The position numbers and the translations under genes are program-made. This document shows, one piece after another, positions 12,239 to 27,215 of a stretch of DNA of 64,000 nucleotides; position 1 is the stretch's first letter; every line of letters begins with the position of its first letter. The notes beneath the pieces were generated by a model. That model searched no databases and had not been told where the DNA came from. It was given only the letters and a program-made list of their open reading frames with translations. The stretch is from an uncultured Clostridia bacterium (lineage in GTDB: Bacteria > Bacillota > Clostridia > Lachnospirales > Lachnospiraceae): contig CANDNA010000001.1 in NCBI GenBank assembly GCA_947385955.1, forward strand, positions 167,065 through 231,064, read 5' to 3'.

Positions 12239-12733
12239 TTAATTCGGTATCACCAATTCCTCATATGCAATCTCCACCGATTCAATGGCCACTTCGCTGG
12301 CAGTGGAATTTAAATCCGGCGCAGTGTATTTTGTCACCCAGGCATTGGTCAGAACCCATACTCTGGTACCGCTGATACTTGTTACCGGTGTGGAAGGCGC
12401 ACCTGCGTTAATATCAATCAATTCAATGGACACTTTGGAACGGGGCATCTCTCCCCTGGTTTCACTGACGCAGTCCTGTATCCATGTCTTGAAAGCATTG
12501 TCAATGGTATAGCCCATTTTCAGGGTAACATTCCCATGCTTGACAAGTCCCGGTACTTTCACCGGCGCCAGGCTGTGGGAATTGCCCTGACGGAACTCGA
12601 TCACATCCACCGAAGCCTCCACTCCGCTGACCTCGGTAAAAGCAGCCGTTCCGCTGACCGAATCCACTGTCACAAGGAAATTCATTTTTGTCAGGGGATA
12701 GAAAAGCCCCGATCCATTCTCATATGCTGCCAT
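12239..12733 (-). CDS. Contractile-system inner tube protein (T4 gp19 / Afp1-like), 164 aa
   Basis: Immediately downstream of the sheath gene. About 160 aa. MAAYENGSGLFYPLTKMNFLVTVDS... matches the 'phage tail protein' tube family typical of eCIS / T6SS-iv loci. Confidence 0.8.
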   Translation of the reverse strand: MAAYENGSGLFYPLTKMNFLVTVDSVSGTAAFTEVSGVEASVDVIEFRQGNSHSLAPVKVPGLVKHGNVTLKMGYTIDNAFKTWIQDCVSETRGEMPRSKVSIELIDINAGAPSTPVTSISGTRVWVLTNAWVTKYTAPDLNSTASEVAIESVEIAYEELVIPN

Positions 12734-12764: not shown

Positions 12765-14462
12765 TTACCGGCCGGATGCCGACTCCGAGGTATACTGTGT
12801 CACCCTGAAAATTACAAATTCTGCCGGGCGCACCGGGGCAATGCCGATGTTGCAGATCAGCCGCCCGTTCCTGATATCATCCTGTGTCATCGTAGACGGA
12901 CCGATTTCCACAAAGAAACTTTCCTCCGGCGAGGCGCCTGCCAGCATACCGCTCCTCCACAGAGTTTCCAGAAAACCGCTGACAGTAAGACGCACTCTGG
13001 TCCACAGAGAAACATCATTCGGCTCAAATACCACCCAGCTTGTATTGGCCCGGATGCTTTCCTCCACATAGATAAAAAGCCTTCTTACATTGACATAGCG
13101 GAAGGTACTGTTACTGCCGACTGTCCGGGCGCCCCATACACGGATCCCCTGTCCCGGCAGCGCCCGGATCAGATTGATCCCTGCCGGATTCAGAATATCC
13201 TGCTCTTGTCTGGTAAAGGAAACCTTCAGACCGCTGCACAGCACCGTTTCATTGGCCGGCGCCTTATGTACACCTCTGGAACTGTCGGTTCTGGCATAGA
13301 CGCCCATCACCGCTCCGGAAGGGGGAAAATACCCATCCTTCTGTGTACAGCGGTCAAAACTCCGAAGCCAGGGATGATACATGGCTGCATAAGTACTGTC
13401 AATCATCTCCCTGTAGCGGAGCAGCTCTGCCGTATCACACATCTCTTCCGGCATATCCAGAACGGCAAAACGGCTGCCCGTCTTTTCACAGTGAGCCACT
13501 AAAGATACCATCACTTCCGCAGCGGTAACGCCGGGCACCGCCATCATACTCACCGTGTCATTTTCCAGAAATGACTGAATGCCTGTCCTCCTGCCGGCTC
13601 CCTCATCACGGCCGATAAAAGTACCGGCGTTTACCTGTTCTATACTGCCGTCGCTTCCACCTTCCAGCATAAAGGTCCCGGCAAAGATGTCCCCGCCCGA
13701 AACCGCGTCCGCAGGATTGTCCGCTCCGTCCTCTCTCTTCAGCGATACCCGGACCAGACGGCTCTTCTCCAGCCTGTTGCCTATATAATTGGGAGAAGCT
13801 ATATTAAAACTCAGATCACTGTAAATTTCCGTTTCGTCAAGATAACGGATCTGAAGTTCCGTTTCCGGAAGATACAGTACCCTCTCCGGTACCAGTCCTC
13901 CATCCACCACCTCTGTATCAAAAAGAGCTTCAAATGTGACATCATTGTCATAAATCGTCCGGATCCGGTTATACTTTCCGTCCACGGTAACAATATCCCC
14001 TTCTGCAAAACCGAAAATGGAACGTGCCCGATAAGTCCGCTCTCCTTTCTGCTCCATCAGCTGCAGTTTCTTTTTCAAAACAGTGGAAAAATTCATCTGG
14101 ATCCGATTTCCCCAGCTTCCTTCACTGGCTGCTTCCACCTGGAGGATATCGATTGTCGCACAGGCCTTTGCAGCGTCCTTTGGCGCTACCCGGCTCACAT
14201 AACAGCGTGTTCCCCCATTGGCAAAAAACTGCTCCACACTGCTGGCCAGATAACGGTATTCCCCATGCGTAAACTCACTCAAAGGACCGCCGAAAATCCG
14301 TAAAAATTCCGCATAGGACGGAACAAAAACCGGCGCCCCCGCTACAGGTCCCTTTACCGCCATCCCCACAAAACCGGCTGTGCTGGTTCCCACTCCCTCA
14401 ATTGTCCGGGGAGAATTGTCATACTCTTCCACATATACCCCCGGTGATAAATATTCTGCCAT
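12765..14462 (-). CDS. Contractile tail sheath protein, 565 aa
   Basis: The N-terminus MAEYLSPGVYVEEYDNSPRTIEGVGTSTAGFVGMAVKGP is the hallmark phage / eCIS sheath N-terminal motif. Size is about 560 aa. RBS present. Confidence 0.9.
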   Translation of the reverse strand: MAEYLSPGVYVEEYDNSPRTIEGVGTSTAGFVGMAVKGPVAGAPVFVPSYAEFLRIFGGPLSEFTHGEYRYLASSVEQFFANGGTRCYVSRVAPKDAAKACATIDILQVEAASEGSWGNRIQMNFSTVLKKKLQLMEQKGERTYRARSIFGFAEGDIVTVDGKYNRIRTIYDNDVTFEALFDTEVVDGGLVPERVLYLPETELQIRYLDETEIYSDLSFNIASPNYIGNRLEKSRLVRVSLKREDGADNPADAVSGGDIFAGTFMLEGGSDGSIEQVNAGTFIGRDEGAGRRTGIQSFLENDTVSMMAVPGVTAAEVMVSLVAHCEKTGSRFAVLDMPEEMCDTAELLRYREMIDSTYAAMYHPWLRSFDRCTQKDGYFPPSGAVMGVYARTDSSRGVHKAPANETVLCSGLKVSFTRQEQDILNPAGINLIRALPGQGIRVWGARTVGSNSTFRYVNVRRLFIYVEESIRANTSWVVFEPNDVSLWTRVRLTVSGFLETLWRSGMLAGASPEESFFVEIGPSTMTQDDIRNGRLICNIGIAPVRPAEFVIFRVTQYTSESASGR

Positions 14463-14486: not shown

Positions 14487-14870
14487 CTATCGCAATACCT
14501 TCTTCTGTCCTGGATCCGCCACCGATATTACGCCGCCGAAAGCACACACCGTCTGTGCCTCACTGGTCAGACAGGGCACTCCCCCGGCCAGTATCTTTGT
14601 CTGTCCCTCTATCCACATCCCACTCACCTGGGGCGTACAGGGCTGTGGTACAATCACTCCTGTCACACTGAGCACCGGGGCAATCGCCGGATGCGTGGGG
14701 CAGACACAGGACGGACAGGGCATAATATTCACAAAAGCCGCGCCATCTTTTATCGTCATAGCCGGTTTTCCATCCAACAATACCTTCTGCTGGCTGGTGG
14801 CCGCCAAAGTTCCCGGCCCTGCGCCGCCGCTGCACAGGTACGCCGCCCCCGTTGCTACCAAAACTCCCAT
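14487..14870 (-). CDS. DUF4280 PAAR-like spike-sharpening protein, ~127 aa
   Basis: Motif ...MTIKDGAAFVNIMPCPSCVCPTHPAIAPVLSVTGV...CLTSEAQTVCAFGGVISV matches the DUF4280 pattern (NIMPFGxC...). Start chosen at MGVL (ATG 14870), which has an AGGAGG RBS. The ORF track begins 14 codons earlier. Confidence 0.75.
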   Translation of the reverse strand: MGVLVATGAAYLCSGGAGPGTLAATSQQKVLLDGKPAMTIKDGAAFVNIMPCPSCVCPTHPAIAPVLSVTGVIVPQPCTPQVSGMWIEGQTKILAGGVPCLTSEAQTVCAFGGVISVADPGQKKVLR

Positions 14871-14889
14871 TGTTCCCTCCTGCAGCCCG

Positions 14890-17484
14890 TCACGGACTGC
14901 TCTGTGTTCCATAATCCATCAATAAAGCCGTCAGTTCTTCCGATGCCGCAGTCACCTCTTCGTCGGCCAGTACTGCATAGCCGGTTCCGGGAATCACACA
15001 GGCCCGGCAGCCAAACTGCTCATACACATACTCCGGCGGCAAATACAAAACACCGGCATACCCGGCAGCCGCCTCCATTTCCTCAGTGCTCCCTCCGTTC
15101 CGGAATACCTGCTTCTGAAACGCAGTAAACTGATAATACACACTTCCTTTGGAAAGAATCACTGTTTTTCCTGTATCATGCCAGACATACCGATATCCCT
15201 TGCAGGCAGCCAGAGCCTGGCTGTTTACCAGCCCGTTTTTCTCTTCATACAGCCAGATCCCCTCCCGGCCCGCCAGAGAAGCAGCCAGAGCCCCGGCGCT
15301 CTCTGTCAGCGCTTCACTGCCCCAGGCATCGCCGCAGGCAGCCAGCGCTATGACTGCCGCCGTTTTTTCCTTTGGTGAAACCCCGGCAGCATCCGGGCCG
15401 TTTTCATTTTCCAGACTGCCGCCCAGCGCTTCCTCCAGAACAGATACGGCCTGCTCCGGCGTCAATGCCTCCTCCGGGGGATACGTCACCTCACTGCATA
15501 CGGCCACTGCCTCTTCGATCTTTTCCATGATTTCATCATACTCATTCTGTCCGCTCAGAAAACCGGCCTGGGCCATATCTTTATACACATCTTTCAATGC
15601 ATTCCCGGCCAGTGAAAAGCCGCCGCCAAGAGAGGCAATCAGCCCGTCCACACTGGCCTCCAGTTCCGACAGATGCTGCGCCCCGCTGCTTCGCAGCGCT
15701 TTTTGCGCATCGCTTTTCAGCCGTTCTATATTGGCAGCTTCGCTTCCGTCCGTTAACTGTGCGCTGGCAATGGCAATCTGTCCGTCCAGTGCGGCAATCC
15801 GGCTTCTGACTTCTGCCCCGCCACTGTCCTGTAACGCTTCCAGAGCTGCCTTTTCTTCATACAGCCGGTTCAGTCCGTCGGCCTGGGCCCTGGCTGCTTT
15901 CCGGATTTCCGCTTCCTTTGCCTCTATCCTGGCTTCCAGCCGTTTCGCCCTGTCCAGATCCAGGTCGTCCAGCGCTTCCAGCCGCTCTTCCTGCAGACTG
16001 GCTTTTTCCTCATACATGCGGTTTATCGGTATCTCCTCTGCTCCCGCCGTCATCCGGCTCAGCAGCATCTGCAGCCAGAGAAGATAACTGTCGGTGGATG
16101 CCTGCGCTGCCTGTTCATAAGCATCCCCAGGGACAGCGTCCAGAAAAGATGCCGCCTGCCTGATCCGCTCTCTGATATACTCCTGCGCTTCCTTATCTTC
16201 CATCCGGTCCACTGCCGCCTGAATATAAAACTGCAGTTCGTTCCGGGCCGTTTCATAAGCCGCCGTATCTTCTGCCATAATGTGTTCCAGTACCACGTGG
16301 GAAGCCTTTTCCTCCAGAGCTTCCTGATACCTCTGACTGATTCCCGGAGAAAGAGCCGACGCATATGCCGCATCCCCTGGCGGTATCAGCTCACTTTCCA
16401 GAAAAGCCAGTTCCCCGGCTGCATCACAGATTTCAGATTCCATAATATGCCCGAGCAGTATCAGATTCTGCACCTCCTCATCACAGGCGCTGTGATCCCC
16501 GGCCTGGGCATGTGATACCAGTGCCATTGCCAGACGGTATCTTACATTGTCCATCACCGTATCCCCCACGGCCAGCTCATTTCCCCGGGCCTGGTTCAAA
16601 GAGTCCATCAGATTCCGGCCGCTGTCCTGCATGGCTGTCAGCAGCGCCTGATCGAGCCGGAGAGGTTCGGATGTTTCCTCCTCTTCCCCTTCCGTATTCT
16701 TGCCGCCGCTCATTTCATCGCTCATCTCCTGTAAAGCGGCCGACAGACGTTCATACACCACCGCCCGCCTGCTGCAGTCCACCTTTCCCATGATTTCCTG
16801 TACCGTATCTTTTTCTTCCTGGGGCGCCCCGTTTTCGCACAATATCATATAATAGGACTGCAGCGCTTCCAACTGCTCATCATACTGCTGTGCCTCCCCG
16901 TCCTTCACATTGGTATCCTCAAAAAAACGCCGGATCCGATCCAGATTCCGTTTCATCTCCCGATCCGGGTCCGACCGGGAAAGCAGGTCATACTGCAGCT
17001 TCAAAGGCTCCAGCTCCGGCAGTGCGTCAATCTCATAAAGAGGCCGGATGGCAAACACCGACACAGCCTGCCCCGTACGCAGATCATAGGTAATGCCGTC
17101 CGCTCCTGTCCGATGGGTCAGAAACAGCGCTCCTATCTCCTCATTGTCCGCCATAATGCCCGTTTCCATCAGATCCGAAAGGGAAGCCGCATCCGTAATG
17201 TCCATCCACCTGCCGTCGGCCAGCTCCGATTTATAGTACCGGTTCCTCTGATTTGCATTGGATGCAGACGTTTCCGCAATCTGATACAGTTCATCCGTCA
17301 GTGCATGAAGATGGATCAGATGGGTCCCGATGATCAGCATGGAATCCTCTTCTGCCGCCGGGTCGATATGTACGCCGCTTTCTTCAAAAACAGCCTCCGT
17401 CGTCAGAAAAGTCCGCCAGATAAACACAGCCGCCAGGGCTCCCATCAGACTGCCTATGATATACTTTGCCGGTTTTCCTTTCAT
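14890..17484 (-). CDS. Membrane-anchored (single N-terminal TM) coiled-coil protein, 864 aa. Function unknown.
   Basis: Hydrophobic helix YIIGSLMGALAAVFIWRTFL at the N-terminus. Long Ala/Glu/Leu-rich segments with a heptad character. No Walker motifs. AGAGGA RBS. Co-oriented and tightly spaced with the sheath gene. Confidence 0.6.
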   Translation of the reverse strand: MKGKPAKYIIGSLMGALAAVFIWRTFLTTEAVFEESGVHIDPAAEEDSMLIIGTHLIHLHALTDELYQIAETSASNANQRNRYYKSELADGRWMDITDAASLSDLMETGIMADNEEIGALFLTHRTGADGITYDLRTGQAVSVFAIRPLYEIDALPELEPLKLQYDLLSRSDPDREMKRNLDRIRRFFEDTNVKDGEAQQYDEQLEALQSYYMILCENGAPQEEKDTVQEIMGKVDCSRRAVVYERLSAALQEMSDEMSGGKNTEGEEEETSEPLRLDQALLTAMQDSGRNLMDSLNQARGNELAVGDTVMDNVRYRLAMALVSHAQAGDHSACDEEVQNLILLGHIMESEICDAAGELAFLESELIPPGDAAYASALSPGISQRYQEALEEKASHVVLEHIMAEDTAAYETARNELQFYIQAAVDRMEDKEAQEYIRERIRQAASFLDAVPGDAYEQAAQASTDSYLLWLQMLLSRMTAGAEEIPINRMYEEKASLQEERLEALDDLDLDRAKRLEARIEAKEAEIRKAARAQADGLNRLYEEKAALEALQDSGGAEVRSRIAALDGQIAIASAQLTDGSEAANIERLKSDAQKALRSSGAQHLSELEASVDGLIASLGGGFSLAGNALKDVYKDMAQAGFLSGQNEYDEIMEKIEEAVAVCSEVTYPPEEALTPEQAVSVLEEALGGSLENENGPDAAGVSPKEKTAAVIALAACGDAWGSEALTESAGALAASLAGREGIWLYEEKNGLVNSQALAACKGYRYVWHDTGKTVILSKGSVYYQFTAFQKQVFRNGGSTEEMEAAAGYAGVLYLPPEYVYEQFGCRACVIPGTGYAVLADEEVTAASEELTALLMDYGTQSSP

Positions 17485-17523
17485 ATCTGATCCTCTGTGC
17501 GCTTTCGCTTCTTTCCTCTGCCG

Positions 17524-19560
17524 TCATTCGTACTCTTCTTCCCGGTTGATCTTCCCTGTCAGCGTATCAAAACTGCCCTCATATAAAAATGCGCCGTTTT
17601 CTTCATAAAACAATATGCGCAGACTGCCCAGGTCCGCTGTCACGGCCGACAGATAGACAAAGCTCTCTGTCACCGGTATGGGCTCTTCCGAATACAGAAA
17701 TCTTCCGTCCTTTTCCACTATCCGGTATGCACCCGCCGGTTCCCCCGGCTCCGGTGTCACCGTAACCCTGGCAATATTCATCCGGTTATCGGTCCGGACG
17801 GAAAAAGAAGCCACCGCCCTCGTTTCTTCTGCTTCCACCCGGTAATTTCCATAGAGCTCCAGAGGCGCCCGGTTAATCTGGGAATCAATTTCACAGACCG
17901 CTGACAGTTCTTCCTCCTCATATAAACGTACCTGGACGCTGTCCACGCCGTCCAGATCCAGTGCCAGATGCCGTATCTCGCTGCCGGGCGCTGTCCGCTC
18001 CCCGATCCTGACCCCGTTTACCCAAAGTTCATATCCGGAGACCGGCAGGGAAAACCCTTCCGGGATGCTGACGCCGAATATAAAAACATTGTCCTCCACT
18101 TTCGTCTGAATGTAATAATAGGCCCCCTCTATCCGGTCCGCAGTCACAAAACTGTCCCCGCCGCCGGTTTCCTCCGGCAATATGCCCCCTTCCTCCAGAT
18201 ACCTGCTGATACCGCCGCAGGTCAGCCGGTCAAAAGCATATAGCTGGCTGCTGTATTCCGCCAGCAGATCCAGCTCTTCCAACTGGTATCCCGCATATTC
18301 TTCCTGCAGATCCGAAAATTCCCCATAGGAAAGCTCTCCCATCCGGTTACGCACCCCGGCCCGCTCCAGCTCCGTTTTCAGGACCTGATTGGACGCTCTC
18401 ATCGCCTGATAAGCATTCCTGACCGTAATCAGATTTTCGTACGTATCCCTGACCCGGTTCTCCAGTTCCGCTTTCGCTCTTTCCTGCTCTGCCAGTGCAT
18501 CCGCATAGTCCAGCGCCGATGTATACAGCGCATAGGGGTCATCTTCCACGTAACGCACCCCGTCGATGGCGCCCTTGAACCATTCCTTTGGAATACGGAT
18601 AAACAGAATCCGCAGGCTTCCCGCCCAGGGCTGGTCGATCCTGATCAGAAAATCATTGTACGCTTTCCGAAAGGCATAGCTGTCCACTTCCTGACCGCTT
18701 TTGGCCTGATTCAGATAAGATTGAATGCTGTTCATCCGGGCGCCGTACTGTCCCCTCATCAGGCTTTCATTCAGTTCCAGGCCGATTCTATTGACTGCTG
18801 CGGTCATTTTTGTTTCATAATATCCATGATCCATTTCCAGTGTATAAGAAATCAGATCTGTCAGGGCGCTCCTTGGAATATCCGCTTCCACAAAAGGATC
18901 TGCAAAGCGGTAACCCACCGTAATATCCAGCTTTACCAGTTTGGAAATCTTCTCTTTGAGAAGCTCAAAATCCCGCTTCCGGGACGCCAGGTCACCGGAC
19001 AGCCGCTCCACTGTTTTTTTCATCTTTTCCACATCCGCCGCCGATGCGTCCCCTGTGATACATTTGATTTCATTGCGGTGCAGTGTATCCTGCCCGCTTT
19101 TCAGCCGTTCCTCCAGATAAACGATCTTTTCCTGGCAGACATAAGCCTGCACGTAAAGCAGGGACACTTCCTCCTTTACGGAATACGTCACATCATTCAG
19201 CCGATGGTTCAGTACATCAATCTGACTGCTGATCTGCAGGGGTTTATACTGCCATTCATAAGCGTCCGCCAATGCAGGCTGCTGAGGAAACCGAAAAGAC
19301 AGCAGGGGCGTCCACCGGAATGTGGACATATTTTTCTTTTTCAGACGGACAGATTTGACCGCTGCGGCATATTTCACCTGCTGCATCTCTATTTTGGCCA
19401 ATATCTGCCTGTATTCCCGGCTGCCGGCCAGGGCAAGCTGCCGGGCCTGCACAAGAGTCAGCGTTTTTTCCCCCGCTGCCTTTGCAGGGCAGCAGGGTAC
19501 GAAAGCCAGCAGGGCAATGATCACAGCCGCCATCGTCCCTTTTTGCATCCATCCCTTCAT
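17524..19560 (-). CDS. Secreted protein with a TolC / outer-membrane-efflux-protein-like (OEP) coiled-coil repeat region plus ~200-aa C-terminal extension, 678 aa
   Basis: Signal peptide MKGWMQKGTMAAVIIALLAFVPCCPAKAAG, then LTLVQARQLALAGSREY..., which is a typical OEP repeat start. Paired coiled-coil segments follow. GGAGGA RBS. Confidence 0.5.
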   Translation of the reverse strand: MKGWMQKGTMAAVIIALLAFVPCCPAKAAGEKTLTLVQARQLALAGSREYRQILAKIEMQQVKYAAAVKSVRLKKKNMSTFRWTPLLSFRFPQQPALADAYEWQYKPLQISSQIDVLNHRLNDVTYSVKEEVSLLYVQAYVCQEKIVYLEERLKSGQDTLHRNEIKCITGDASAADVEKMKKTVERLSGDLASRKRDFELLKEKISKLVKLDITVGYRFADPFVEADIPRSALTDLISYTLEMDHGYYETKMTAAVNRIGLELNESLMRGQYGARMNSIQSYLNQAKSGQEVDSYAFRKAYNDFLIRIDQPWAGSLRILFIRIPKEWFKGAIDGVRYVEDDPYALYTSALDYADALAEQERAKAELENRVRDTYENLITVRNAYQAMRASNQVLKTELERAGVRNRMGELSYGEFSDLQEEYAGYQLEELDLLAEYSSQLYAFDRLTCGGISRYLEEGGILPEETGGGDSFVTADRIEGAYYYIQTKVEDNVFIFGVSIPEGFSLPVSGYELWVNGVRIGERTAPGSEIRHLALDLDGVDSVQVRLYEEEELSAVCEIDSQINRAPLELYGNYRVEAEETRAVASFSVRTDNRMNIARVTVTPEPGEPAGAYRIVEKDGRFLYSEEPIPVTESFVYLSAVTADLGSLRILFYEENGAFLYEGSFDTLTGKINREEEYE

Positions 19561-19586
19561 GCCATTCCTCCTGCTCCCGTCCTTCT

Positions 19587-20744
19587 CTATATTTCTTTCT
19601 CTTCGATTAAATAACAGAAAAAGCCGCCGTTTTTTTCTGTGCAGAAAAAGGTATACAGATAGTCCGCCGTGTCAAACCGGTACAGATACATCAGATACTC
19701 TTTATCATATCCCGTTACCTGCATACAGTCCTCAAACAGGGGCGTCATCTCCATCCTGACCCCGCCGCCCATATCCTCCTGTCCGCCGGCCCGGTTCACA
19801 GCCACCGCATCCGGCATGGTCAGACGGGTATTTCCCTCGTAGACAGCCGGCCCCACAGCCCCGCTGACCTGCGGGATATTCTCCAGCAGACTGCCGCCCA
19901 GACAAATACTCTGACTGAGGACATAGATGCCGTCCACCGTCCATTCCCCGTCCACGGTTTCCTCCCCGTTATATGCCCTGTAAACAGCAGAAATCTCCGG
20001 CAGGAACACACAATATTCCCGGTCTGAAGTATAAGCCATCCGTCTGCCCGTGTAGAGAGACGCCATTTCCGAAGCGCTTCTGCCTGCCATTTCTTCATAC
20101 ACAATCCGGTCTTTTTGGAAGCTGCCTTCATAAATCTGCTTCCCGCTGCCGTTATACAGTATCCCATGTCCTTCTTTTTGTCCTTTGGAAAAACCGCCTT
20201 CATATTCGATCACACCGTTCTCACGATATAAAGTCCCCTCTCCGTCAAACTGGTTTTCCATAAAATCGCCTGTATACCACAGGATATTGCCCGGATAATA
20301 CCGCTCGCCCGATCCGCTGTACTGGTTTTGTGAAAAACCGCCCCGGTACACCAGATCTCCGCCCGGCGCATACAAAACACCGTTTCCATTGGCCGCGCCG
20401 CCCTCTACTTCTCCTTCATAAGCCAGATAACCGGACCGTCCCAGAATCGCCACTTGTCCGCTTTTAAACCGCAGCGGCAGCGCATTGTACCGATAAACGC
20501 TCACCCCGTCAGTTACCGTATCCGAACGGGCAGGCAGGCAGGCAAAGATCACCCACAGACTTCCCAGCCCCAGAAACGCCAGTGCCAGAACGGCCAGTCT
20601 CCTGGCAATCATCCAACCGCCAATGACCATATAATCCGCTTTTCCCCCGGGCCTGATGTGCGGCAGACAGCTGCCGTATTCCCTGCACTTTTCTCTGATA
20701 TAAGAAGGCTTTAACCGGTTCGGAATCCTACTGAAACAGTCCAT
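19587..20744 (-). CDS. MORN-repeat membrane protein
   Basis: At least 6 MORN-like repeats (YEGEVEGGAANGNGVLY, YRGGFSQNQYSGSGERYY, YTGDFMENQFDGEGTLY, YEGGFSKGQKEGHGILY, YEGSFQKDRIVY...) after a TM segment LAVLALAFLGLGSLWVIFACL. Start chosen at MDCF (ATG 20744), which has an AGGAGAG RBS. Confidence 0.7.
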   Translation of the reverse strand: MDCFSRIPNRLKPSYIREKCREYGSCLPHIRPGGKADYMVIGGWMIARRLAVLALAFLGLGSLWVIFACLPARSDTVTDGVSVYRYNALPLRFKSGQVAILGRSGYLAYEGEVEGGAANGNGVLYAPGGDLVYRGGFSQNQYSGSGERYYPGNILWYTGDFMENQFDGEGTLYRENGVIEYEGGFSKGQKEGHGILYNGSGKQIYEGSFQKDRIVYEEMAGRSASEMASLYTGRRMAYTSDREYCVFLPEISAVYRAYNGEETVDGEWTVDGIYVLSQSICLGGSLLENIPQVSGAVGPAVYEGNTRLTMPDAVAVNRAGGQEDMGGGVRMEMTPLFEDCMQVTGYDKEYLMYLYRFDTADYLYTFFCTEKNGGFFCYLIEEKEI

Positions 20745-23367
20745 AAAGCATCTCTCCTGCATGTATTGTCTCTGTCATCTTTTCCTCACAGGCAAACAGA
20801 TACCATCTGGCCGCCGGATCCTTTGGACAGCTTTTTACCAGTTCCATAAACCCATCCGCCGCTTCCCGGAACATGCCTCTCTCATACCGATCCACCGCTT
20901 CCCGGAATGCCTCCGCCGTTTCGGCCTTCTGTTCCCTCTCCGTCGTTTCACAGGCTTCCAGCACTTCGTACAGGGCAAAACATCTTTCGGAAGACGGCTT
21001 TACAAAGCCCAGATACCGGATCTGACCATATCCGTCCAGTCTCTCTTTTGTCTCCTCTGTAATCACCACATGCACCCCCAGTCCTTTCAGATCATCCATA
21101 TATGCGGACAAAAGCTCCAGATCCCGGGAAATCACAAAGGGACAGGTCCGGGCCGCACTGCCGGCCAGACCGCATATGCAGGCTCCGCTGTGCAGCAGCA
21201 CAAGCGGCCGGATCGGATACCTCTGATCTGCCCGTTCCCGCAGCCTCAGGATACCTGTCACAGCAAAACGCACTGCCTGAGCCGCCGTCAGTTCCGGTTC
21301 CTTATAGATCACATTCACAGATTCCAGCATATGGCCGGTCAGCAGCACACCGCCTGCCATTTCATTGCATCTGCCGACGCATTCCAGCAGACTGTTCAGA
21401 TATCGTATGTACTCTCCTGCCCCGCTGCTTTGCAGAATCACCTCTTTCTCCGCCACCGAAACCACGCCTGCCGTGGCCTGTACCGATACCGATTCCCCTA
21501 CCGGTACCTGCTCCAGTGTCTCTTTCCCAAACAGACTTTCAAACCCGTCCGGGGTAAATCTGGCATAGTACTTTACCACATTACCGCGGGAATATTCCTG
21601 GGCCTGCAGCGCTTTGCACATACGGTGCAGCGCGACCCAGATCCGTCCGTATTCATTGTCCGGAAACTTTTTTTCCGGCAGGTCGTACATACCGCCTGCC
21701 ACCCGTTTCATATAATAGGCCGCCGTTTTGACCGGACGGATAAAATGATATAAGATCAGCAGATTCAGCACCGTGGAAATCACGCCATAGATACAGGCCC
21801 ATTTCAGGCTGCTGCCCCACATCTCCCGGCTTCGTTCCTCCAGATCATACAATGTGGCTTTCCGGATAAAATAAAGATTTTTCCCTTCGGCTTTGTTAAT
21901 ATACACCTGATACCTGCGGCCCTGAAAGCTGCAGACCCCGCTGGCTTCACCATTTTCCTGCGCCTCTTTCAAAAGCTCCAGCGTATCCCTGCCATGACAG
22001 GCATACAGGCTCCGCCCGCTCACACAGTCTTCCCCATTGAGCACACAGGCATGTTCTCCGTCTGCATATACAAGCTCCGAAGAAAATTCAATGATTTTAT
22101 CCTGATCTTTTACCAGTACGCCCACCAATGTGCCGTCCACCGCATCAGCCCATTCCGTGTCATAAAAATCCAGTCCGCTCACATGGTCCAGACGGACACC
22201 CCTGTCATACATCAGTTCGACGGTTTCCATCGTCCCGAATACCTGATTGCTGATTCCCCGGCTCTCTTCCAGATATCCTCTGGAATGACGGTAAATATAA
22301 ATGGTAAGCAATACAATAAACATCATATTGACTGCCACAACACTGCCCATCATCGTCCGGATAACCGGGCGGAACTTCTGCTTTCTGTACAAAAAACAAA
22401 AGAGACATAAAGCGGTGAAAAGATAGAGAACGCTCCAAAGAGCCGCCGCCTTCCATCCCACATCCCACAATACCGGCCAGCCATACCCGATCTGGCTGCA
22501 ATCCATTCCCGTTTTCTTTTCACAGTCTGTCAGAGTATGGCTGTAGTCCCTGCTCCTGACAAGGGCCACGGCCTGACTGCCGCCCTTCAGACAGTCTGCC
22601 CCCAGCAGCCCGGAAGCCTTTATATTACAGAGGCTGCGGCTTTCTCCCTGTTCCAGAAACCACAGAGCATCCTCTTCCCCGGTGGTATACAACAGCCCGC
22701 CGGAAGAAATCTCCATCCACATTACCCGGCCGGCTGTTTCCTGTGGGAAAAAGCGGTAAGATTCCCCGGTAAAAAATCCCAGCGCCCCGTTACTTTGCAG
22801 GACATACAGGCGCTTCCCGTCAAAAGCCGCACTCACCACTTTATGTCCTGCCGGCAGAGTACGCCTCATCTCTTCTGTCAGCGGCGCCATGCCCTGTCCG
22901 GTCAGATCACAGGAATACAGGATCACTTCCCATTCCACCCGGTCCAGAGCCGTCAGATACAGCCGGCCTGCGGCCACTGAGGATGACGTAATACAGAGCT
23001 GGTTGCCGTAGTCCAGGCTGCCCACTGTTTTCTCCCGCTTCCACTCATCGTCTATCTGATTTACCGTAATCCGGCTGGTCCCGGCTCCTTCTTTCTGATG
23101 AATCAGCAAAAGCCCGCCGTCAGGCGTGGTTTTAAAACTGCTGACCGCCGCCGTAGGGCCATAGGCCCTGACCATCGTACCCGATCCGTCTATTTCATAC
23201 AGCCTGCTTCCGTAGTCCCCATTCTCCACCAATATCACATTTCCCTCATCCGTCAGCTCCACATTGGGAAATACATTGCTCAGATTCGGTTTCTGAATAC
23301 GAAAAATACCGATGACCGTGCCGATATAGGCCAAAACGGCTGTCACTGCAAATATGCTCTTTTTCAT
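20728..23367 (-). CDS. Membrane sensor-like protein, ~880 aa: N-terminal signal-anchor, extracytoplasmic beta-rich domain, two TM regions, and a C-terminal domain resembling a degenerate class-III nucleotide cyclase followed by a TPR-like tail
   Basis: Start chosen at MKKSIFAVTAVLAYIGTVIGIF (AGGAGAA RBS). TM segments lie near residues 350-420 and 600-620. The cyclase resemblance (VVKYYARFTPDGFESLF...LHSGACICGLAGSAARTCPFVISRDLELLSAYMD) is weak and the catalytic residues appear substituted. Confidence 0.35.
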   Translation of the reverse strand: MKKSIFAVTAVLAYIGTVIGIFRIQKPNLSNVFPNVELTDEGNVILVENGDYGSRLYEIDGSGTMVRAYGPTAAVSSFKTTPDGGLLLIHQKEGAGTSRITVNQIDDEWKREKTVGSLDYGNQLCITSSSVAAGRLYLTALDRVEWEVILYSCDLTGQGMAPLTEEMRRTLPAGHKVVSAAFDGKRLYVLQSNGALGFFTGESYRFFPQETAGRVMWMEISSGGLLYTTGEEDALWFLEQGESRSLCNIKASGLLGADCLKGGSQAVALVRSRDYSHTLTDCEKKTGMDCSQIGYGWPVLWDVGWKAAALWSVLYLFTALCLFCFLYRKQKFRPVIRTMMGSVVAVNMMFIVLLTIYIYRHSRGYLEESRGISNQVFGTMETVELMYDRGVRLDHVSGLDFYDTEWADAVDGTLVGVLVKDQDKIIEFSSELVYADGEHACVLNGEDCVSGRSLYACHGRDTLELLKEAQENGEASGVCSFQGRRYQVYINKAEGKNLYFIRKATLYDLEERSREMWGSSLKWACIYGVISTVLNLLILYHFIRPVKTAAYYMKRVAGGMYDLPEKKFPDNEYGRIWVALHRMCKALQAQEYSRGNVVKYYARFTPDGFESLFGKETLEQVPVGESVSVQATAGVVSVAEKEVILQSSGAGEYIRYLNSLLECVGRCNEMAGGVLLTGHMLESVNVIYKEPELTAAQAVRFAVTGILRLRERADQRYPIRPLVLLHSGACICGLAGSAARTCPFVISRDLELLSAYMDDLKGLGVHVVITEETKERLDGYGQIRYLGFVKPSSERCFALYEVLEACETTEREQKAETAEAFREAVDRYERGMFREAADGFMELVKSCPKDPAARWYLFACEEKMTETIHAGEMLYGLFQ

Positions 23368-23396
23368 CTTCCGTTCTCCTGCCTGTATCTGCCGGG

Positions 23397-24260
23397 TTAT
23401 TGCAGCAGCGACTCTGTGCCGATTGTCTGAAAAGAATTGTGGAACAGCCGCAGGAAAGGGATTTCTCCCCAGATCATCTGAGAAATCACCATACAAAGCG
23501 CAATCCCTGCCAGCAACAGGCAACCGATTACAAAGAGCCTGAATATCCCATGCCGATGGTTTTGAAAGGCCCGGCCCAGCCGCTTTCCGAATCTGACAAG
23601 CTGCCCGCTCTTTTTCCCGCTTCCTGCAAACCGCACATCCTGATACAGTTCCCCCATATGGGTATAGCTTCTCCGGTCCAGCTTGCGCTCTATCAGCATC
23701 CTGCAGATCCGTCCCCGTCCCTGTTCCTCTTCCAGCATCACAAGAAGCAGCTCTCCACAGGCCCCTGTACAGTCCCGCTGCCCCCGGCGGGCATCATACC
23801 CGGCCAGATCCAGCGAATAGCCTATCCGTACCCGTCCGTCCCGTTCCAGGTGGATCTGATCCTGCATAAGCGCCAGATACAGCAGAGATTCCGGCATCCT
23901 TACGGCCATGCACTCCCTGACCAACCCCTGCCATACCTTCCTTCGTTCCTCCGCATCATATCCTTCTCTTTGGTAAAACCGGCACAGAGGCCGCTCCGGA
24001 ACATAAGGAAAAGAAAAACACATGCGGGAGCCCTGAAAAAAGCATTCCACATAAGGTGTATCCATCTCCTGCCGCTCCTTCTGAAAACGGCAGAAAGCCT
24101 CCAGAACCTGACGGGCGACTCCCGGCTCCCGGATCAGCCACACCGTATAACATTCTTCTCCGCCGCCGTCCTCCCGTATACAGACCAGTACATCATTGAC
24201 CCTGCCTCTGAATACTTCCCGGATGCTGAAAAGGCGCATCGTACCTGTCTCCAGTATCAT
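23397..24260 (-). CDS. Hypothetical protein with C-terminal TM helix, 287 aa
   Basis: ORF with a GGAAAGGAACG RBS. C-terminal hydrophobic segment LFVIGCLLLAGIALCMVISQMIW. No recognisable domain. Confidence 0.5.
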   Translation of the reverse strand: MILETGTMRLFSIREVFRGRVNDVLVCIREDGGGEECYTVWLIREPGVARQVLEAFCRFQKERQEMDTPYVECFFQGSRMCFSFPYVPERPLCRFYQREGYDAEERRKVWQGLVRECMAVRMPESLLYLALMQDQIHLERDGRVRIGYSLDLAGYDARRGQRDCTGACGELLLVMLEEEQGRGRICRMLIERKLDRRSYTHMGELYQDVRFAGSGKKSGQLVRFGKRLGRAFQNHRHGIFRLFVIGCLLLAGIALCMVISQMIWGEIPFLRLFHNSFQTIGTESLLQ

Positions 24261-24283
24261 AGACGTTCCTTTCCGCTTTCTTT

Positions 24284-26029
24284 TTACTCCACAATCATAT
24301 AAGCATAGGTATCAATCTGGGGCATATCCGCACAGTAGATATGGATTTCATACAGTCCGCTGCCGGCAGGCGCCGTATACATCCCATCCTGGGAAATCCT
24401 GCCGCTGCCGCTTTCCGTCAGTTCATATACCAGGCGGCACGGCTCCATCCTGCAAAACAGAATATCGATATAACAGCTCTTCCCCGCCTCCAGCCTGACC
24501 GTAGGCATCCGCGGCACGATACTCATCTCCGAACAGTCTGCGGCCAGCCTGCTCTCTTCCGTGGAATGGAACCGCACAGCCACCCAGTTCAGCAGCAGCA
24601 CAATGCTCCTCTGCTCCCCTTCCAGCCGCGCCGCCACCTGAAAGCTTCCTTTTTCATGGTATACTTTGACCGCCGTTTTCACCCAGCTGTGGTCCTGCTC
24701 CCGGAACAGGTCGCTGTCGCCGTATATAGTACTTTTCACACTGCTGCCCATCACATCCGTTTCTTCCAGACAGGCCACTCCCACCTGTACGAATACTTCT
24801 CCGGCGCCCAGTCCATGCAAAATCTCCTCCGAAAAACAGATATCCCCCCGCTTCATATTCACATCCAGCGGAATCTCCAGTGTACCGTTTGTCATCAGAG
24901 GCATTTTGAAAGGCTCCCCAGGCGCCGCTGCCTGTACCGTTTCCGCTCTTTCCTCCATCCGTTCCCTGCCGGCCGGCGGAGCGAAACATGCCATATACTG
25001 CTGCCTCTCCGCTGATTTGGCCGGAGGCGCAATATATCTGCGCCTGTCTGTTACCGATGCGATCACATACGCATCCCCTGTACGGAACATTCTGATCTCT
25101 GCCAGCAGAAGTCCTTCCTCATCCTCTCTCCCGACAGATTCCAGATTTTCCTGCGCCGTCTGAGACAGCGCCATCTGCTCCGGTTCCAGACCGGTGAAAC
25201 AGATCTGCAAAGAGGCATCCTCCTTCACCGGCACATCATACTCTCCTACAAAAGCCTGCCCGCTTCCCCGCTTCCACAGAATACTGCCTGTGTCCGCTGT
25301 GCTTTGCTGTGCCAGAACCCAGTAATCTTTCCAAAATTCTTCTCCCTGCTCCAGAAAAATGTCCTGCATACCCACAGGCAGTTCATGCTCTCCTGTCTCC
25401 GTCACAAATGCGGGAAACTGAAGAACCCCTTCCAGCGACAATGATTTCCCGGCCCCGCTGCACTTTACCACTCTTACCCGGATCCGGACACGCCGCCCTC
25501 TGCACACAACCTTTGGCACACTGATCAGTACTCTGAAATCCTCCTGCTCCAGAAACACCGCTTCCTCCAAAAAGGCAGGTGTCTCCCGGAACACTTCCCC
25601 GGCCTCTGCCAGGAAAAGCTGATATCCTTCCCGGATCCGGTTACATTCATAATGTTCTTCCTGGCCTTCCTCTCCCATCGCAAACACCGGATGGACAGAC
25701 TCCTCCACATAACGTATTCTGAGCTGAGCCCGCTCTCCTCTGACGGTTTCAAACCCCTCAATGGCCGACAGCTTTCTGGCCACAGAAGCATGCAGGATCA
25801 TCTCACGTCCTCCGTCATCCAGTGCCGCGCCTTCTTCCACCAGCACAGTCAGATCATCCAGCCCGCTGACTTTCAGCCCGCACAGAACCCCCGGCCCATA
25901 CAGCATACGGTTCAGGAATCTCCTTTTATTGTTCATATAAAGCTGCTCTGCCGTAAAATCCATTGATGCCAGCATTTTTCCCGCATAATAACGGTTTCTT
26001 TCAAAAGGGAACCATTGTTTATGATTCAT
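24284..26029 (-). CDS. Hypothetical protein, first gene of the contractile-system cluster, 581 aa
   Basis: ORF with a GAAGAGGGAAAGAAGG RBS, immediately downstream of an AT-rich promoter region. Its N-terminus (NRYYAGKMLASMDFTAEQLYMNNKRRFLNRMLYGPGVLCGL) looks like a conserved-domain start, but I cannot place it. Confidence 0.5.
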   Translation of the reverse strand: MNHKQWFPFERNRYYAGKMLASMDFTAEQLYMNNKRRFLNRMLYGPGVLCGLKVSGLDDLTVLVEEGAALDDGGREMILHASVARKLSAIEGFETVRGERAQLRIRYVEESVHPVFAMGEEGQEEHYECNRIREGYQLFLAEAGEVFRETPAFLEEAVFLEQEDFRVLISVPKVVCRGRRVRIRVRVVKCSGAGKSLSLEGVLQFPAFVTETGEHELPVGMQDIFLEQGEEFWKDYWVLAQQSTADTGSILWKRGSGQAFVGEYDVPVKEDASLQICFTGLEPEQMALSQTAQENLESVGREDEEGLLLAEIRMFRTGDAYVIASVTDRRRYIAPPAKSAERQQYMACFAPPAGRERMEERAETVQAAAPGEPFKMPLMTNGTLEIPLDVNMKRGDICFSEEILHGLGAGEVFVQVGVACLEETDVMGSSVKSTIYGDSDLFREQDHSWVKTAVKVYHEKGSFQVAARLEGEQRSIVLLLNWVAVRFHSTEESRLAADCSEMSIVPRMPTVRLEAGKSCYIDILFCRMEPCRLVYELTESGSGRISQDGMYTAPAGSGLYEIHIYCADMPQIDTYAYMIVE

Positions 26030-26039
26030 CTGCCGCCTT

Positions 26040-26336
26040 CTTTCCCTCTTCCGTCCAGCCGGATCATAATCTCTCCGAGGCAGGAAGCCAAACTCTCAAT
26101 CTTTTTTACAGAATACGACAATTTCCAACATGCATCAATAGAGTTGACCTATATGCACCTTTTTTTCACACAAATATACCATATCAGGTAATTTTGTAAG
26201 AAAACAGAAAATATCCGTTTATACTATTTGACAATCTTTTTACCCATCTGATAAAATAAATCAACATTCAGGCCTTTCCTGATATTTTTGTTTCTGTCGC
26301 AGCAGACTGTTTTGATTACAAAGGAGGCGCTTTTGC
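26040..26336. promoter_or_regulatory. AT-rich divergent promoter region between the contractile-system cluster (minus) and an HATPase-like gene (plus)
   Basis: GC content drops sharply here. Plus strand: TTGACA (26229-26234), a 17-nt spacer, then ATAAAA. Minus strand: TTGATG-N17-TATTCT around 26110-26145. These are sigma-A-like candidates only. Confidence 0.35.
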
Positions 26337-27215
26337 GTGAAAACACAGGCTTTCTCGGCTGTCGAACGCCATTTTCTCACAGGTCACACCCTCTGTTTCC
26401 TTGCCGCTCTGATTTTTTTTCTGCAGGGGGCCTTTTTACCATGTCTGATCTGTATACTGCTGTTGGGCCTGTCCTTTCCGCTTTTTTTATTGTCTGACAA
26501 ACCGGCGGCCCTGTTTGTCCGTCATATAACAGAAGCGCCGGAAACCGGACAGACCACCGAATCAGTTGAATCCACTGACCCGAAAACTCCTGTTCTGTCC
26601 ACACCTTCGCTCCCGCCTGAAGATTACGCTCTTCCCGCAGCTCCCAATCTGCCAAAAGACGATTCCCTGCTTATCCTGCCCGGCTCTGTCAAAAAGCCGG
26701 TGTCTCTGGACCTGATTTCCCTCTGTATGGAAACGGGGAAAGAGCTGTTCTCCTTATACCGCCTGTACCCTTCTCAGTTCCGGATTTTAAGTGAAGAAAA
26801 AGACCTGTTCCTCTCCACCGATCAGTCTCTTCTGAAGCTGATTCTCCATAACCTGATGGACAACGGGGCAAAATATGCCAGACATGACTGCGCCCGCGGC
26901 GCCCGCTTCACTCTGACGCTTTCCCGGCAGGACTCTGATGCATTGCTGATTTTCCGCAACAATACCTGCGGCGTTCCCGGAGCAGAGATCCCGCATCTTA
27001 CCGGACGCAATCAGCAGGGTTCCAACCGGATCAGCGGCACAGGACTGGGGCTTTTTCAGGCTGACGCCGCTGTCCGGGCCCTGCAGGGTTCTCTGAAAAT
27101 CAAAAGCTCACCCGGAACCGGCTTTGCAGTCTATGTGCAGCTTCCGGATCTGGGTGAGCTTTCCAGGTACTCAAATTCCATTCCGCCAAAGGAGGAACCT
27201 CATGAAACGGCGTAA
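26337..27215 (+). CDS. Membrane protein with a C-terminal HATPase_c (GHKL) domain but no recognisable DHp / His-box (orphan kinase-like ATPase), 292 aa
   Basis: GTG start. Two TM helices. N-box LHNLMDNGAKYA, G1 FRNNTCGVPG, G2 GTGLGL. No H-E-x-x-T/N-P-type phospho-acceptor region precedes them. Confidence 0.5.
   Translation: MKTQAFSAVERHFLTGHTLCFLAALIFFLQGAFLPCLICILLLGLSFPLFLLSDKPAALFVRHITEAPETGQTTESVESTDPKTPVLSTPSLPPEDYALPAAPNLPKDDSLLILPGSVKKPVSLDLISLCMETGKELFSLYRLYPSQFRILSEEKDLFLSTDQSLLKLILHNLMDNGAKYARHDCARGARFTLTLSRQDSDALLIFRNNTCGVPGAEIPHLTGRNQQGSNRISGTGLGLFQADAAVRALQGSLKIKSSPGTGFAVYVQLPDLGELSRYSNSIPPKEEPHETA

Follow-up and report, generated by a model that had tools for sequence, protein, structure and literature searches.

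The window, a 64-kb stretch of DNA from a gut Lachnospiraceae bacterium with a Gram-positive (monoderm) envelope, carries the locus of a contractile injection system (CIS), a phage-tail-like machine, on its minus strand. Six ORFs were verified immediately upstream of the DUF4280, sheath, tube and baseplate genes and in the same orientation, as the sequence-only reading had described them. Independent gene calls on a near-identical public contig gave matching products of 581, 287, 879, 385, 678 and 864 aa, followed by DUF4280 (127 aa) and the sheath (565 aa). The genes are tightly packed, with spacers of 19–39 nt and one 17-nt overlap (in gene order 23, 29, −17, 26, 39 and 19 nt), and a purine-rich Shine-Dalgarno-like motif stands before each of the six starts. 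No terminator-like sites were found on the minus strand in the spacers of the six genes or between the 864-aa gene and DUF4280, all matches lying inside coding sequence. Because of this spacing and the lack of such sites, the earlier proposal that the six genes and the structural genes behave as one unit is supported, and they are probably co-transcribed. An AT-rich promoter had been placed near 26.1 kb, where a 307-nt AT-rich intergenic region (26030–26336, minus strand) indeed contains consensus matches at 26200–26173 and 26091–26063 that may act as promoters. The region is shared with a divergent gene for a membrane HATPase_c protein (26337–27215, plus strand), a candidate regulator; of 41 related loci, 25 have it beside the 581-aa gene.

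The CIS genes downstream of the six, all on the minus strand, begin with the DUF4280 PAAR-like spike tip of 127 aa (14487–14870; Pfam E 3.9e-22, NCBIfam IglG-like E 9e-11), the contractile sheath (12765–14462; Pfam Phage_sheath_1 and Phage_sheath_1C) and a Cis1/Cis5-like inner tube protein (12239–12733). They are followed by a 120-aa protein (11860–12222) conserved at 45–78% identity among CIS loci from many phyla, a 55-aa ORF (11660–11827) whose translation, compared by inspection, resembles that of the correspondingly placed DUF6760 gene in locus L083, and a second gp19-like tube-family protein (11186–11647), relatives of which carry C-terminal extensions to a total of up to 868 aa. Position and low conservation suggest that the 863-aa protein at 8572–11163 occupies the tape-measure position, and two CIS_tube-family genes (8005–8571 and 7414–7983, within 7414–8571) would encode the tube initiator or adaptor. 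The remainder comprises a 400-aa VgrG-related hub (5980–7182; NCBIfam VgrG_rel E 2.9e-11), a spike OB-fold protein (Phage_base_V/VgrG; 5145–5960), a gp25/TssE-like sheath initiator (4706–5131) and a 991-aa baseplate assembly protein (TIGR02243, gp6/J-like; 1747–4722). A second TIGR02243-like baseplate gene (1–1742) is open through the left window edge, and the CIS locus therefore extends past the window. No ClpV-type recycling ATPase was seen in the window.

The sequence-only reading had listed the 581-aa product (24284–26029, minus strand, as for all six) as hypothetical and had recognized no canonical eCIS structural component in the set; both statements had to be revised. Residues 9–145 form a Cis13-family N-terminal baseplate-anchor domain (NCBIfam E 1.4e-18), which is common to thousands of N-terminally matching proteins, and a string of Ig-like beta-sandwich domains follows, with no TM segment in the protein. 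The N-terminus also weakly matched that of the tCIS crown protein All3314. Given the Cis13-family and Ig-like domains, the protein is a recognized CIS part, and judged by its domain content the gene encodes the baseplate fibre of the CIS, a predicted cytoplasmic connector. At 59–67% identity, its distal end is as conserved as the baseplate anchor (66%).

Two further products would present domains to the cytoplasm. For the tail-anchored 287-aa protein (23397–24260), the TM scan reproduced the C-terminal TM segment noticed earlier, with a K+R-rich N-flank. Its predicted layout comprises a cytoplasmic domain of ~240 aa, a TM segment at 242–260 and a 25-aa external tail, which is the most conserved segment (50% identity vs 30–33% elsewhere). 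The cytoplasmic domain is possibly kinase-like, a weak and unproven assignment based on AKT-kinase matches with E 0.17–0.9. For the 879-aa polytopic, sensor-like protein (20728–23367), TM scan, positive-inside analysis and hhalign predicted four TM segments and two variable ectodomains; its cytoplasmic part would comprise a HAMP-like segment, a degenerate class-III cyclase homology domain and a conserved helical tail. The weak cyclase-like domain had been suspected from the letters and gave no direct match in Pfam, NCBIfam or PDB; its homology is supported because an intermediate, a Brevibacillus CIS-locus protein (L039; hhalign probability 99.7%, E 1e-25), carries HAMP and PF00211. By inspection of the family alignment, the catalytic motifs are absent. 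Identity is 14–20% in the ectodomains vs 44% in the cytoplasmic tail. A HAMP and cyclase-domain sensor and a MORN protein are also both present in a Brevibacillus CIS locus.

The remaining three proteins are predicted to lie outside. Gene call, TM scan and Pfam (MORN E 1.5e-9, three repeats) agree with the TM-anchored MORN protein proposed earlier, a bitopic 385-aa product (19587–20744) with a short cytoplasmic N-terminus, one TM segment, external MORN repeats and an uncharacterized C-terminal domain. The secreted 678-aa protein (17524–19560) carries a signal peptide and two OEP repeats built from long helical hairpins. In place of the TolC barrel strands it has two short aromatic segments that are conserved, and C-terminal beta-sandwich (Ig-like) domains occupy 471–678. 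On its own it stayed below the Pfam cutoff for OEP (E 0.011), but all 17 of 17 family members matched (best E 2.8e-11), and the top 44 PDB matches of its AlphaFold model were all OMF channels. As its TolC/OEP-like repeats had suggested, the protein was thereby confirmed as a genuine TolC/OMF homologue, its barrel segments being shortened. Its tip segments are 57–62% identical, the helices 37–40%, and the locus holds no membrane-fusion or transporter partner for it. The 864-aa protein (14890–17484) had been described as a single-TM coiled-coil protein; the single N-terminal TM segment (N-in) was recovered by the TM scan, whereas within its helical region the heptad signal was strong only at ~500–620. 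It further has a conserved membrane-proximal external domain (31–170) and a C-terminus matching Cu_amine_oxidN1 in Pfam.

Across relatives, the loci of TolC-like homologues were colinear and on the same strand in 100 of 100 cases, from many species and down to 35% identity, and no homologue lay away from a CIS locus among them. Where enough downstream DNA was available, the 864-aa homologue, DUF4280 and the sheath were present in 55/55 loci; where enough upstream DNA was available, the MORN, 287-aa and 581-aa genes were present in 43/43. The 879-aa sensor gene was found in 37 of these 43 and is missing from one subclade (6/43), where by gene content it is dispensable. The module occurred in 18 of the 19 genome loci with sheath identity of at least 60% and in none of the 29 more distant CIS loci below 60%. 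The cap gene Cis16 (Pvc16_N) separates the 864-aa gene from DUF4280 in most relatives; one subclade has Cis15 and Cis16 upstream of the 581-aa gene, so that the module is bracketed by canonical CIS genes. In the window's own subclade, no Cis16 was seen within the 64 kb. Gene order and protein length of the six were kept across the lineage, and their sequences diverge roughly as fast as those of baseplate and tape-measure proteins, without polymorphism.

Envelope attachment, one of two roles considered in the sequence-only reading, best fits these data because of the predicted topologies, with two conserved domains cytoplasmic and three proteins outside, and the conservation pattern. From gene content, homology, predicted topology and CIS synteny, all computed, we infer complex formation, docking and triggering; on balance we lean towards a complex, specific to this lineage, that docks a cell-bound CIS to the monoderm envelope and triggers it. 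Here, the fibre would be seated in the baseplate by its Cis13-type domain, and the conserved Ig-like domains at its distal end would extend towards the membrane. The other five proteins would form the envelope complex, in which the 287-aa protein (possibly kinase-like domain) and the four-TM sensor (HAMP, dead cyclase and helical tail) may offer their conserved cytoplasmic domains to the baseplate or the fibre. A scaffold spanning the wall could be built on the outside by the MORN protein, the coiled-coil protein of 864 aa and the TolC-like protein as a trimer, and the extended CIS would be held perpendicular to the cytoplasmic membrane. A TolC lumen measures ~2–3.5 nm and a CIS tube ~8–9 nm; since the lumen is too narrow for the tube, the trimer would serve as a strut or anchor and not as a conduit. 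The variable sensor ectodomains may couple an outside cue to firing, either as T6SS-like neighbour injection or, as known from Streptomyces and Anabaena, as lysis of the producing cell. The pattern of conserved segments in the fibre, the 287-aa tail, the TolC-like tips and the sensor fits internal contacts and a variable sensor.

Several observations count against docking, namely the absence of the sensor from one subclade, the failure to see Cis16 in the 64 kb and the weak kinase match of the 287-aa protein (E 0.17). Moreover, a fibre with N-terminal anchor, Ig-like build and no TM segment would equally fit the target-binding tail fibre of a released extracellular CIS (PMC12923769), with the five envelope proteins controlling production or release, for example by cue sensing, wall opening or weakening for exit, or lysis regulation. 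Such eBAP/Cis13-type anchors and fibre-like architectures are typical of eCIS fibres and common in Bacillota, relatives possess Cis15 and Cis16, and HAMP, dead cyclase and the neighbouring HATPase_c protein suggest regulation. The tape-measure-position gene and the missing ClpV are likewise eCIS-like, although tCIS and CIS-Sc share both. However, neither holin nor endolysin nor any further wall-hydrolase domain was found in the six proteins, the distal fibre domains are conserved like the anchor, unlike fast-evolving eCIS receptor-binding tips (PMC12923769), and five structural-looking envelope proteins in fixed order in at least 100 loci exceed the needs of a regulator. We therefore regard release as rather unlikely.

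Clostridial surface proteins often carry MORN, Ig-like and Cu_amine_oxidN1 domains. Together with the pump partners otherwise found beside TolC-like proteins of monoderm Firmicutes and their proposed S-layer location (PMC8809574), they would suit a separate adhesion or efflux-like surface/transport system with a TolC-like core, co-regulated with the CIS but physically apart. This appears improbable, as no such partner is encoded in the locus and the TolC-like genes, never outside a CIS locus among the 100 loci examined, are flanked by canonical CIS genes. Poorer still are the prospects of an effector or cargo-loading set, the other role considered earlier. Accessory or cargo genes can occur at this position, and the window shows no other toxin; however, five of the six proteins bear a Sec signal or TM segments, so that export would precede any loading into a cytoplasmic tube, one is the baseplate fibre, and order and length are conserved. 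Toxin domains, of which the earlier reading had recognized none either, and immunity domains were not found in the six, and the baseplate- and tape-measure-like divergence argues the same way. Fortuitous adjacency of unrelated genes is effectively refuted by the colinearity of the related loci.

Docking to the envelope has precedents in CIS-specific membrane adaptors at cluster edges, such as tCIS Cis13/Cis12 (PMC8894136), CisA (bioRxiv 10.1101/2024.06.25.600559) and Hbor_38620 (PMC11566945). In the Anabaena tCIS, as proposed here, baseplate and membrane are linked by a fibre-like protein whose N-terminal domain binds the baseplate, and the anchoring parts are lineage-specific additions (PMC8894136). 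However, tCIS Cis13 is small with its own C-terminal TM helix and serves thylakoids, whereas here an Ig-like-ended fibre lacking a TM segment would work with five separate envelope proteins at the cytoplasmic membrane of a monoderm. S. coelicolor CisA, compared by description, is one protein whose cytoplasmic region is disordered and whose external domain resembles a substrate-binding protein (bioRxiv 10.1101/2024.06.25.600559), in contrast to five proteins of other folds (TolC-like, MORN, HAMP with dead cyclase, tail-anchored). The putative anchor Hbor_38620 of the haloarchaeal T6SS-like CIS, a conserved uncharacterized membrane protein upstream of the core cluster, occurs in only one clade of CIS loci, whose action is membrane-attached and contact-dependent (PMC11566945). 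This phylogenetic logic matches the present module, although Hbor_38620, likened by description, is a single protein with six TM segments, its cytoplasmic domain having 150 residues, in an envelope of membrane and S-layer.

With TssJ-TssL-TssM of the T6SS, the proposed complex shares the concept of a multi-protein trans-envelope assembly docking a contractile tail, and TssL has the topology of the tail-anchored 287-aa protein. Pfam and NCBIfam searches, whose libraries include TssE, VgrG and IglG models, gave no TssJ/L/M match; in contrast to the T6SS, the host lacks an outer membrane, one gene of the locus occupies the tape-measure position, and ClpV was not seen. The eCIS tail fibres with eBAP3/eBAP4 anchors, common in Bacillota, share the conserved N-terminal anchor and beta-rich C-terminal domains (PMC12923769), but the 581-aa gene heads its operon instead of following the baseplate genes, and its distal domains are conserved, not hypervariable.

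A TolC-like protein had seemed unexpected next to a CIS. In a monoderm, such a protein is not in itself without precedent, as Firmicutes proteins with OMF fold and signal peptide are known where outer membrane and BAM machinery are lacking (PMC8809574). Those proteins are encoded alongside adaptor and inner-membrane pump subunits in operons (PMC8809574), whereas no pump partner accompanies the 678-aa protein, which differs further in its shortened barrel segments, its additional C-terminal Ig-like domains and its strict linkage to a CIS. No description of the present envelope module was found in the literature searched, and the link of a TolC-like protein to a CIS appears new. The anchors of Anabaena, Streptomyces and haloarchaea resemble the present case in principle, which would be realized here with different parts. 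Judged by synteny and distribution, the CIS of gut and rumen Lachnospiraceae includes these six genes as an integral part that is specific to the lineage.

The six genes of the module were found on the minus strand where the sequence-only reading had placed them. In their order on that strand, they encode a 581-aa protein (24284-26029), a 287-aa protein (23397-24260), an 879-aa sensor-like membrane protein (20728-23367), a MORN-repeat protein (19587 to 20744 or 20762), a 678-aa TolC-like protein (17524-19560) and an 864-aa protein (14890-17484). The start of the 879-aa gene was set at an ATG; the mechanical ORF list runs on to a TTG at 23523. Independent gene calls on L081, a near-identical public contig of the Logan assembly, gave 581, 287, 879, 385, 678 and 864 aa, followed by DUF4280 (127 aa), the sheath (565 aa) and the tube genes. 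An exact look-up of the sheath protein returned no record, and exact matching of the TolC-like protein led to public contigs. The tight spacing described earlier was confirmed, with spacers of 19-39 nt or small overlaps, and a purine-rich ribosome-binding motif precedes every start. All minus-strand terminator-like matches lie within coding sequence and none in the spacers. The sole sizeable gap is an AT-rich stretch of 307 nt (26030-26336) with promoter-like sites. Co-transcription of the six genes with the structural genes may therefore reasonably be inferred from the tight, terminator-free spacers and the promoter-like sites in the only gap. An Rfam search of the left end of the window and the promoter region gave nothing above threshold. 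Divergent from the module, a membrane protein with only a HATPase_c domain is encoded at 26337-27215 on the plus strand, followed by an SH3_3 protein (27124-28026, plus strand). In 25 of 41 related loci, the HATPase_c gene is a direct neighbour of the 581-aa gene, in some cases with both on one strand, and the HATPase_c protein may be a regulator of the system.

Downstream of the module lies a normal core of a contractile injection system (CIS). It starts with the DUF4280 (PAAR/IglG-like) and sheath genes and continues with a gp19-type tube protein and a 120-aa protein conserved across phyla. A 55-aa ORF (11660-11827, minus strand), easily missed by length cutoffs, lies after the 120-aa gene and before the second tube gene. 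On inspection of both translations, it resembles a 59-aa DUF6760-annotated gene at the same position in L083, an abundant human-gut relative. The second tube-family protein (11186-11647) has 153 aa in the window; in relatives, it is extended at the C-terminus to widely differing lengths, with totals of 205-868 aa (e.g., in the related loci L018:13575-16181 and L020:13066-15429). These extensions are reminiscent of cargo-fused tube proteins, and a Pfam search of the long ones found no toxin domain. The next gene, of 863 aa, occupies the tape-measure position. Two CIS_tube genes, a VgrG-related hub, a spike OB protein, gp25/TssE and a 991-aa TIGR02243 baseplate protein follow, and a viral-contig scan with the 991-aa protein found no relatives. 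A second TIGR02243-like baseplate gene (1-1742, minus strand, E 1.1e-14) is open through the left window edge, and the CIS locus therefore continues beyond the window. Homologues of Cis15 and Cis16 were not detectable anywhere in the 64-kb window; those of its subclade may lie beyond the left edge. Elsewhere, GC content falls to 30-37%, against about 50%, in an island at 54576-57733 with three genes on the minus strand. By eye, from the translations only, their products resemble an HNH nuclease, a P-loop/ABC-type ATPase and an AlbA_2/Schlafen-like HTH protein, and this could be a defence island.

The association of module and CIS was followed across related loci. Used as query against 185,579 species genomes, the sheath protein yielded 80 loci, with sheath identities from 68% down to 35%. 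By tblastn and ORF maps, the loci of the Lachnospiraceae clade share the order sensor, MORN, TolC-like, 864-aa, DUF4280 and sheath, and nothing comparable was seen by the same means in the remaining loci. From metagenomes, a scan that started from the TolC-like family added 80 further loci, the counts being pooled with those of the genomes. A TolC-like homologue was present in 100 pooled loci, colinear and on one strand in every case. The 864-aa gene, DUF4280 and sheath occurred in 55/55 loci with at least 8 kb of downstream sequence, and the MORN, 287-aa and 581-aa genes in all 43 loci with at least 7.5 kb upstream, 37 of which also hold the sensor gene. Among genome loci with enough upstream DNA, the module was found in 18 of 19 at a sheath identity of at least 60% and in 0 of 29 below 60%. 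The sole exception in the former group is L018, where giant 864-like genes fill the flank. Some relatives have two copies of the 864-aa gene or a much larger version of it, as at L012:2018-8164 (907 and 1139 aa), another related locus, and L018:32-8079 (748 and 1903 aa).

Most relatives, among them L020 (8216-9564) and some 60 further loci, have two more genes between the 864-aa gene and DUF4280, namely the cap gene Cis16 (Pvc16_N, E 6e-28) and an uncharacterised one of about 245 aa; the window (14871-14889) and its nearest relatives (L001, L023, L083-L089, L093 and L096) are without both genes there. The sensor-less subclade has a Cis15-type AAA ATPase and Cis16 directly upstream of the 581-aa gene. 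With Cis16 on one side, or Cis15 and Cis16 on the other, canonical CIS genes thus enclose the module. The human-gut relative L083 holds the same six genes at nearly equal lengths and 28-48% identity. Of the proteins of this lineage, some are present on public contigs numbering from dozens to more than 170. The proposed link to the CIS, for which three ways to fail had been fixed beforehand, survived all of them: colinearity is strict, same-lineage loci carry the module (18 of 19) and the spacers hold no terminator-like match. Module-type parts were also seen farther afield. A Brevibacillus porteri CIS locus (L039:1144-9817) encodes a membrane protein with HAMP and cyclase domains and a MORN protein beside Cis15 and Cis16, a Peptostreptococcaceae locus (L037, around 5482) has a cyclase-type homologue, and an Oscillibacter locus (L045:150-953) has MORN repeats upstream of DUF4280. 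It may therefore be that some components of the module are CIS accessories with an older history in Firmicutes. Two metagenome-assembled contigs labelled Bacteroides/Bacteroidales (L003 and L028) carry Firmicutes-type CIS loci, with sheaths 67% and 52% identical to that of the window, and are probably mis-binned.

The view that none of the six is a canonical component of extracellular CIS (eCIS) had to be revised for the 581-aa protein, a recognised CIS component by its Cis13-family N-domain. Pfam returned nothing for it. Residues 9-145 match positions 4-139 of the NCBIfam profile CIS13 (Cis13, NF053767) with an E-value of 1.4e-18, and the N-terminal baseplate-binding domain is thus present. 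The match covers the N-terminal third only and, at 67.4 bits vs a curated cutoff of 370, falls short of full-length Cis13 equivalence; the rest of the protein consists of Ig-like domains, a different set from Cis13. While Cis13 of the thylakoid-anchored type (tCIS) has a C-terminal TM helix, the 581-aa protein is without any hydrophobic segment. PDB searches with the single 581-aa and 678-aa sequences gave nothing useful, and family profiles were needed; that of the 581-aa family gave a weak match to the tCIS crown protein All3314 at its N-terminal end. Matches to the 145-residue N-domain were found in 3,474 representative proteins, and all 150 of those listed begin at or near the N-terminus; the full length is common to only about 300 proteins. 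A modular design of baseplate anchor plus fibre has been catalogued for CIS fibres and is common in Bacillota (PMC12923769), and judged by its sequence the 581-aa protein is a CIS component of this design.

In the predicted topology of the 287-aa protein, about 240 residues form a cytoplasmic domain, followed by a C-terminal TM whose inner flank is rich in K/R and by an external tail of 25 residues, the best conserved part of the protein. Its family profile matched AKT-type kinases in the PDB over residues 10-143 in a consistent register, the matches being weak (E 0.17-0.9), and a kinase-like fold is suggested as a lead only. The 879-aa protein has four TM segments in a positive-inside pattern, with predicted ectodomains of about 285 and 165 residues outside and the last 335 residues inside. 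The ectodomains are only 14-20% identical across the family. A cyclase domain had no direct match in Pfam, NCBIfam or PDB. The 935-aa protein of the Brevibacillus locus, which adjoins Cis15, Cis16 and the sheath, matches HAMP (E 3e-7) and Guanylate_cyc PF00211 (E 1.1e-8), and the 879-aa family profile aligns to it with 99.7% probability (E 1e-25) over 352 columns spanning the last TM, HAMP, cyclase domain and tail. Class III cyclase homology is therefore supported transitively. From inspection of the family alignment, we infer that the catalytic residues (two metal-binding Asp, transition-state Asn/Arg) are absent from the window's protein and the family, at positions which we take to be those of the canonical motifs. 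By way of the Brevibacillus intermediate and these absent residues, the earlier designation as a degenerate-cyclase sensor gained indirect support.

The MORN protein has one TM and predicted external repeats, and the repeats noted earlier were recovered as three Pfam PF02493 matches (E 1.5e-9, 37.6 bits vs a cutoff of 22.5). The 678-aa protein carries a signal peptide with an AKA-AG cleavage-type site. Alone, it scores below the Pfam OEP cutoff (15.9 vs 22 bits). All 17 family members examined match OEP PF02321 (best E 2.8e-11) with two tandem repeats of long alpha-helical hairpins, the family profile matches TolC in both halves, and NCBI names one homologue "TolC family protein". Long helical hairpins are seen in an AF2 model (pLDDT 78.4), whose 44 best PDB matches are without exception outer membrane factor (OMF) channels (E 1e-7 to 5e-4). 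OMFs such as TolC form a 12-stranded membrane-spanning beta-barrel, with two hairpins per protomer. At the barrel-strand positions, the 678-aa protein has segments of only about 18 and 21-30 residues (81-98, 319-339), with a pLDDT below 50 in the monomer model and an alternating aromatic pattern. These segments are the most conserved, at 57-62% identity vs 37-40% in the helices. Residues 471-678 form beta-sandwich domains. OMFs act together with a membrane-fusion adaptor plus a transporter of the inner membrane, whose genes are usually close by; no such partners (HlyD, RND, ABC, MFS) were found in the window locus or the L081 and L083 gene tables. OMFs reside in an outer membrane; the loci closest to the window are all from Lachnospiraceae, which are monoderm. 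For the 864-aa protein, described earlier as a single-TM coiled-coil protein, an N-in TM and a helical region were found, and clear heptad character is limited to about residues 500-620. It has a conserved membrane-proximal domain (49% identity) and a Cu_amine_oxidN1-like C-terminal end. PADLOC found no defence-system match among the six proteins, and Pfam and NCBIfam searches matched none of them to TssJ, TssL/DotU or TssM/IcmF. A lysis cassette was rejected, the module having no hydrolase or holin features.

Functions were read from sequence, predicted structure and synteny. The predicted series from inside to outside would begin with a baseplate-anchored cytoplasmic fibre, followed by two membrane proteins (287-aa and 879-aa) presenting conserved cytoplasmic domains and, last, three proteins displayed outside (MORN, TolC-like and 864-aa). 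The fibre tip, the 287-aa external tail, the TolC-like tips, the 864-aa membrane-proximal domain and the cytoplasmic tail of the sensor are conserved, and the sensor ectodomains are very variable, a pattern that fits internal contacts plus a variable sensor. Predicted topologies and conservation together favour, with moderate confidence, the reading that the six genes encode a complex which docks a cell-bound CIS at the envelope and triggers it. A CIS tube is much wider than the lumen of the TolC-like channel, which is therefore unlikely to serve as conduit for the tube. More plausibly, the TolC-like trimer would be a strut with its anchorage in the wall or S-layer, which agrees with the placement in the S-layer proposed for monoderm TolC-like proteins (PMC8809574).

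Three other readings were weighed against the docking complex. The particle could be a released eCIS with the 581-aa protein as target-binding fibre and envelope proteins governing release or regulation; the module contains no lysis-type domain, however, and the fibre tip is conserved, and we regard this as rather unlikely. That the envelope genes form a separate, merely co-regulated surface system appears more doubtful still in view of the strict CIS linkage and the missing pump partners. The alternative once offered, that the six proteins are effectors or serve cargo loading, is unlikely as five of them carry signal or TM segments and as the set shows no polymorphism. Chance adjacency to the CIS is excluded.

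The docking concept has precedents. In Anabaena, the tCIS proteins Cis13 and Cis12 anchor the system to thylakoids (PMC8894136), CisA is required for firing in Streptomyces (bioRxiv 10.1101/2024.06.25.600559), and a clade-specific membrane protein marks T6SS-like haloarchaeal systems (PMC11566945). By description, CisA, with a disordered cytoplasmic N-terminus, a TM and an SBP-like external domain, differs from each of the five envelope proteins. The literature searched contained no paper that connects CIS to Lachnospiraceae in such a way, to TolC-like proteins or to MORN proteins; one metagenome survey described digestive-tract CIS as lacking Cis13, judged by reference families. CIS with lineage-specific membrane adaptors are already known, and the composition and the monoderm setting are new with respect to that literature.

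CIS act as released particles or as membrane-bolted machines; for the membrane mode in thick-walled bacteria without an outer membrane, Streptomyces CisA is the sole Gram-positive adaptor found described in the literature searched. The lineage studied here is common in gut and rumen Lachnospiraceae and, with its predicted inner and outer parts, provides a delimited set of genes on which docking and triggering at a Gram-positive envelope can be studied. Tentatively, these loci might represent the Gram-positive equivalent of the T6SS, an injection apparatus of monoderm Firmicutes that would be anchored in the envelope, act on contact and be widespread in human-gut and rumen Lachnospiraceae. In it, a repurposed TolC-like trimer, MORN and coiled-coil proteins would make up the trans-wall complex and a dead-cyclase sensor would trigger firing. 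The docking complex would also give a function to a monoderm TolC-like protein, a standing puzzle, and in its light abundant gut commensals might engage in contact-dependent antagonism or undergo programmed lysis.
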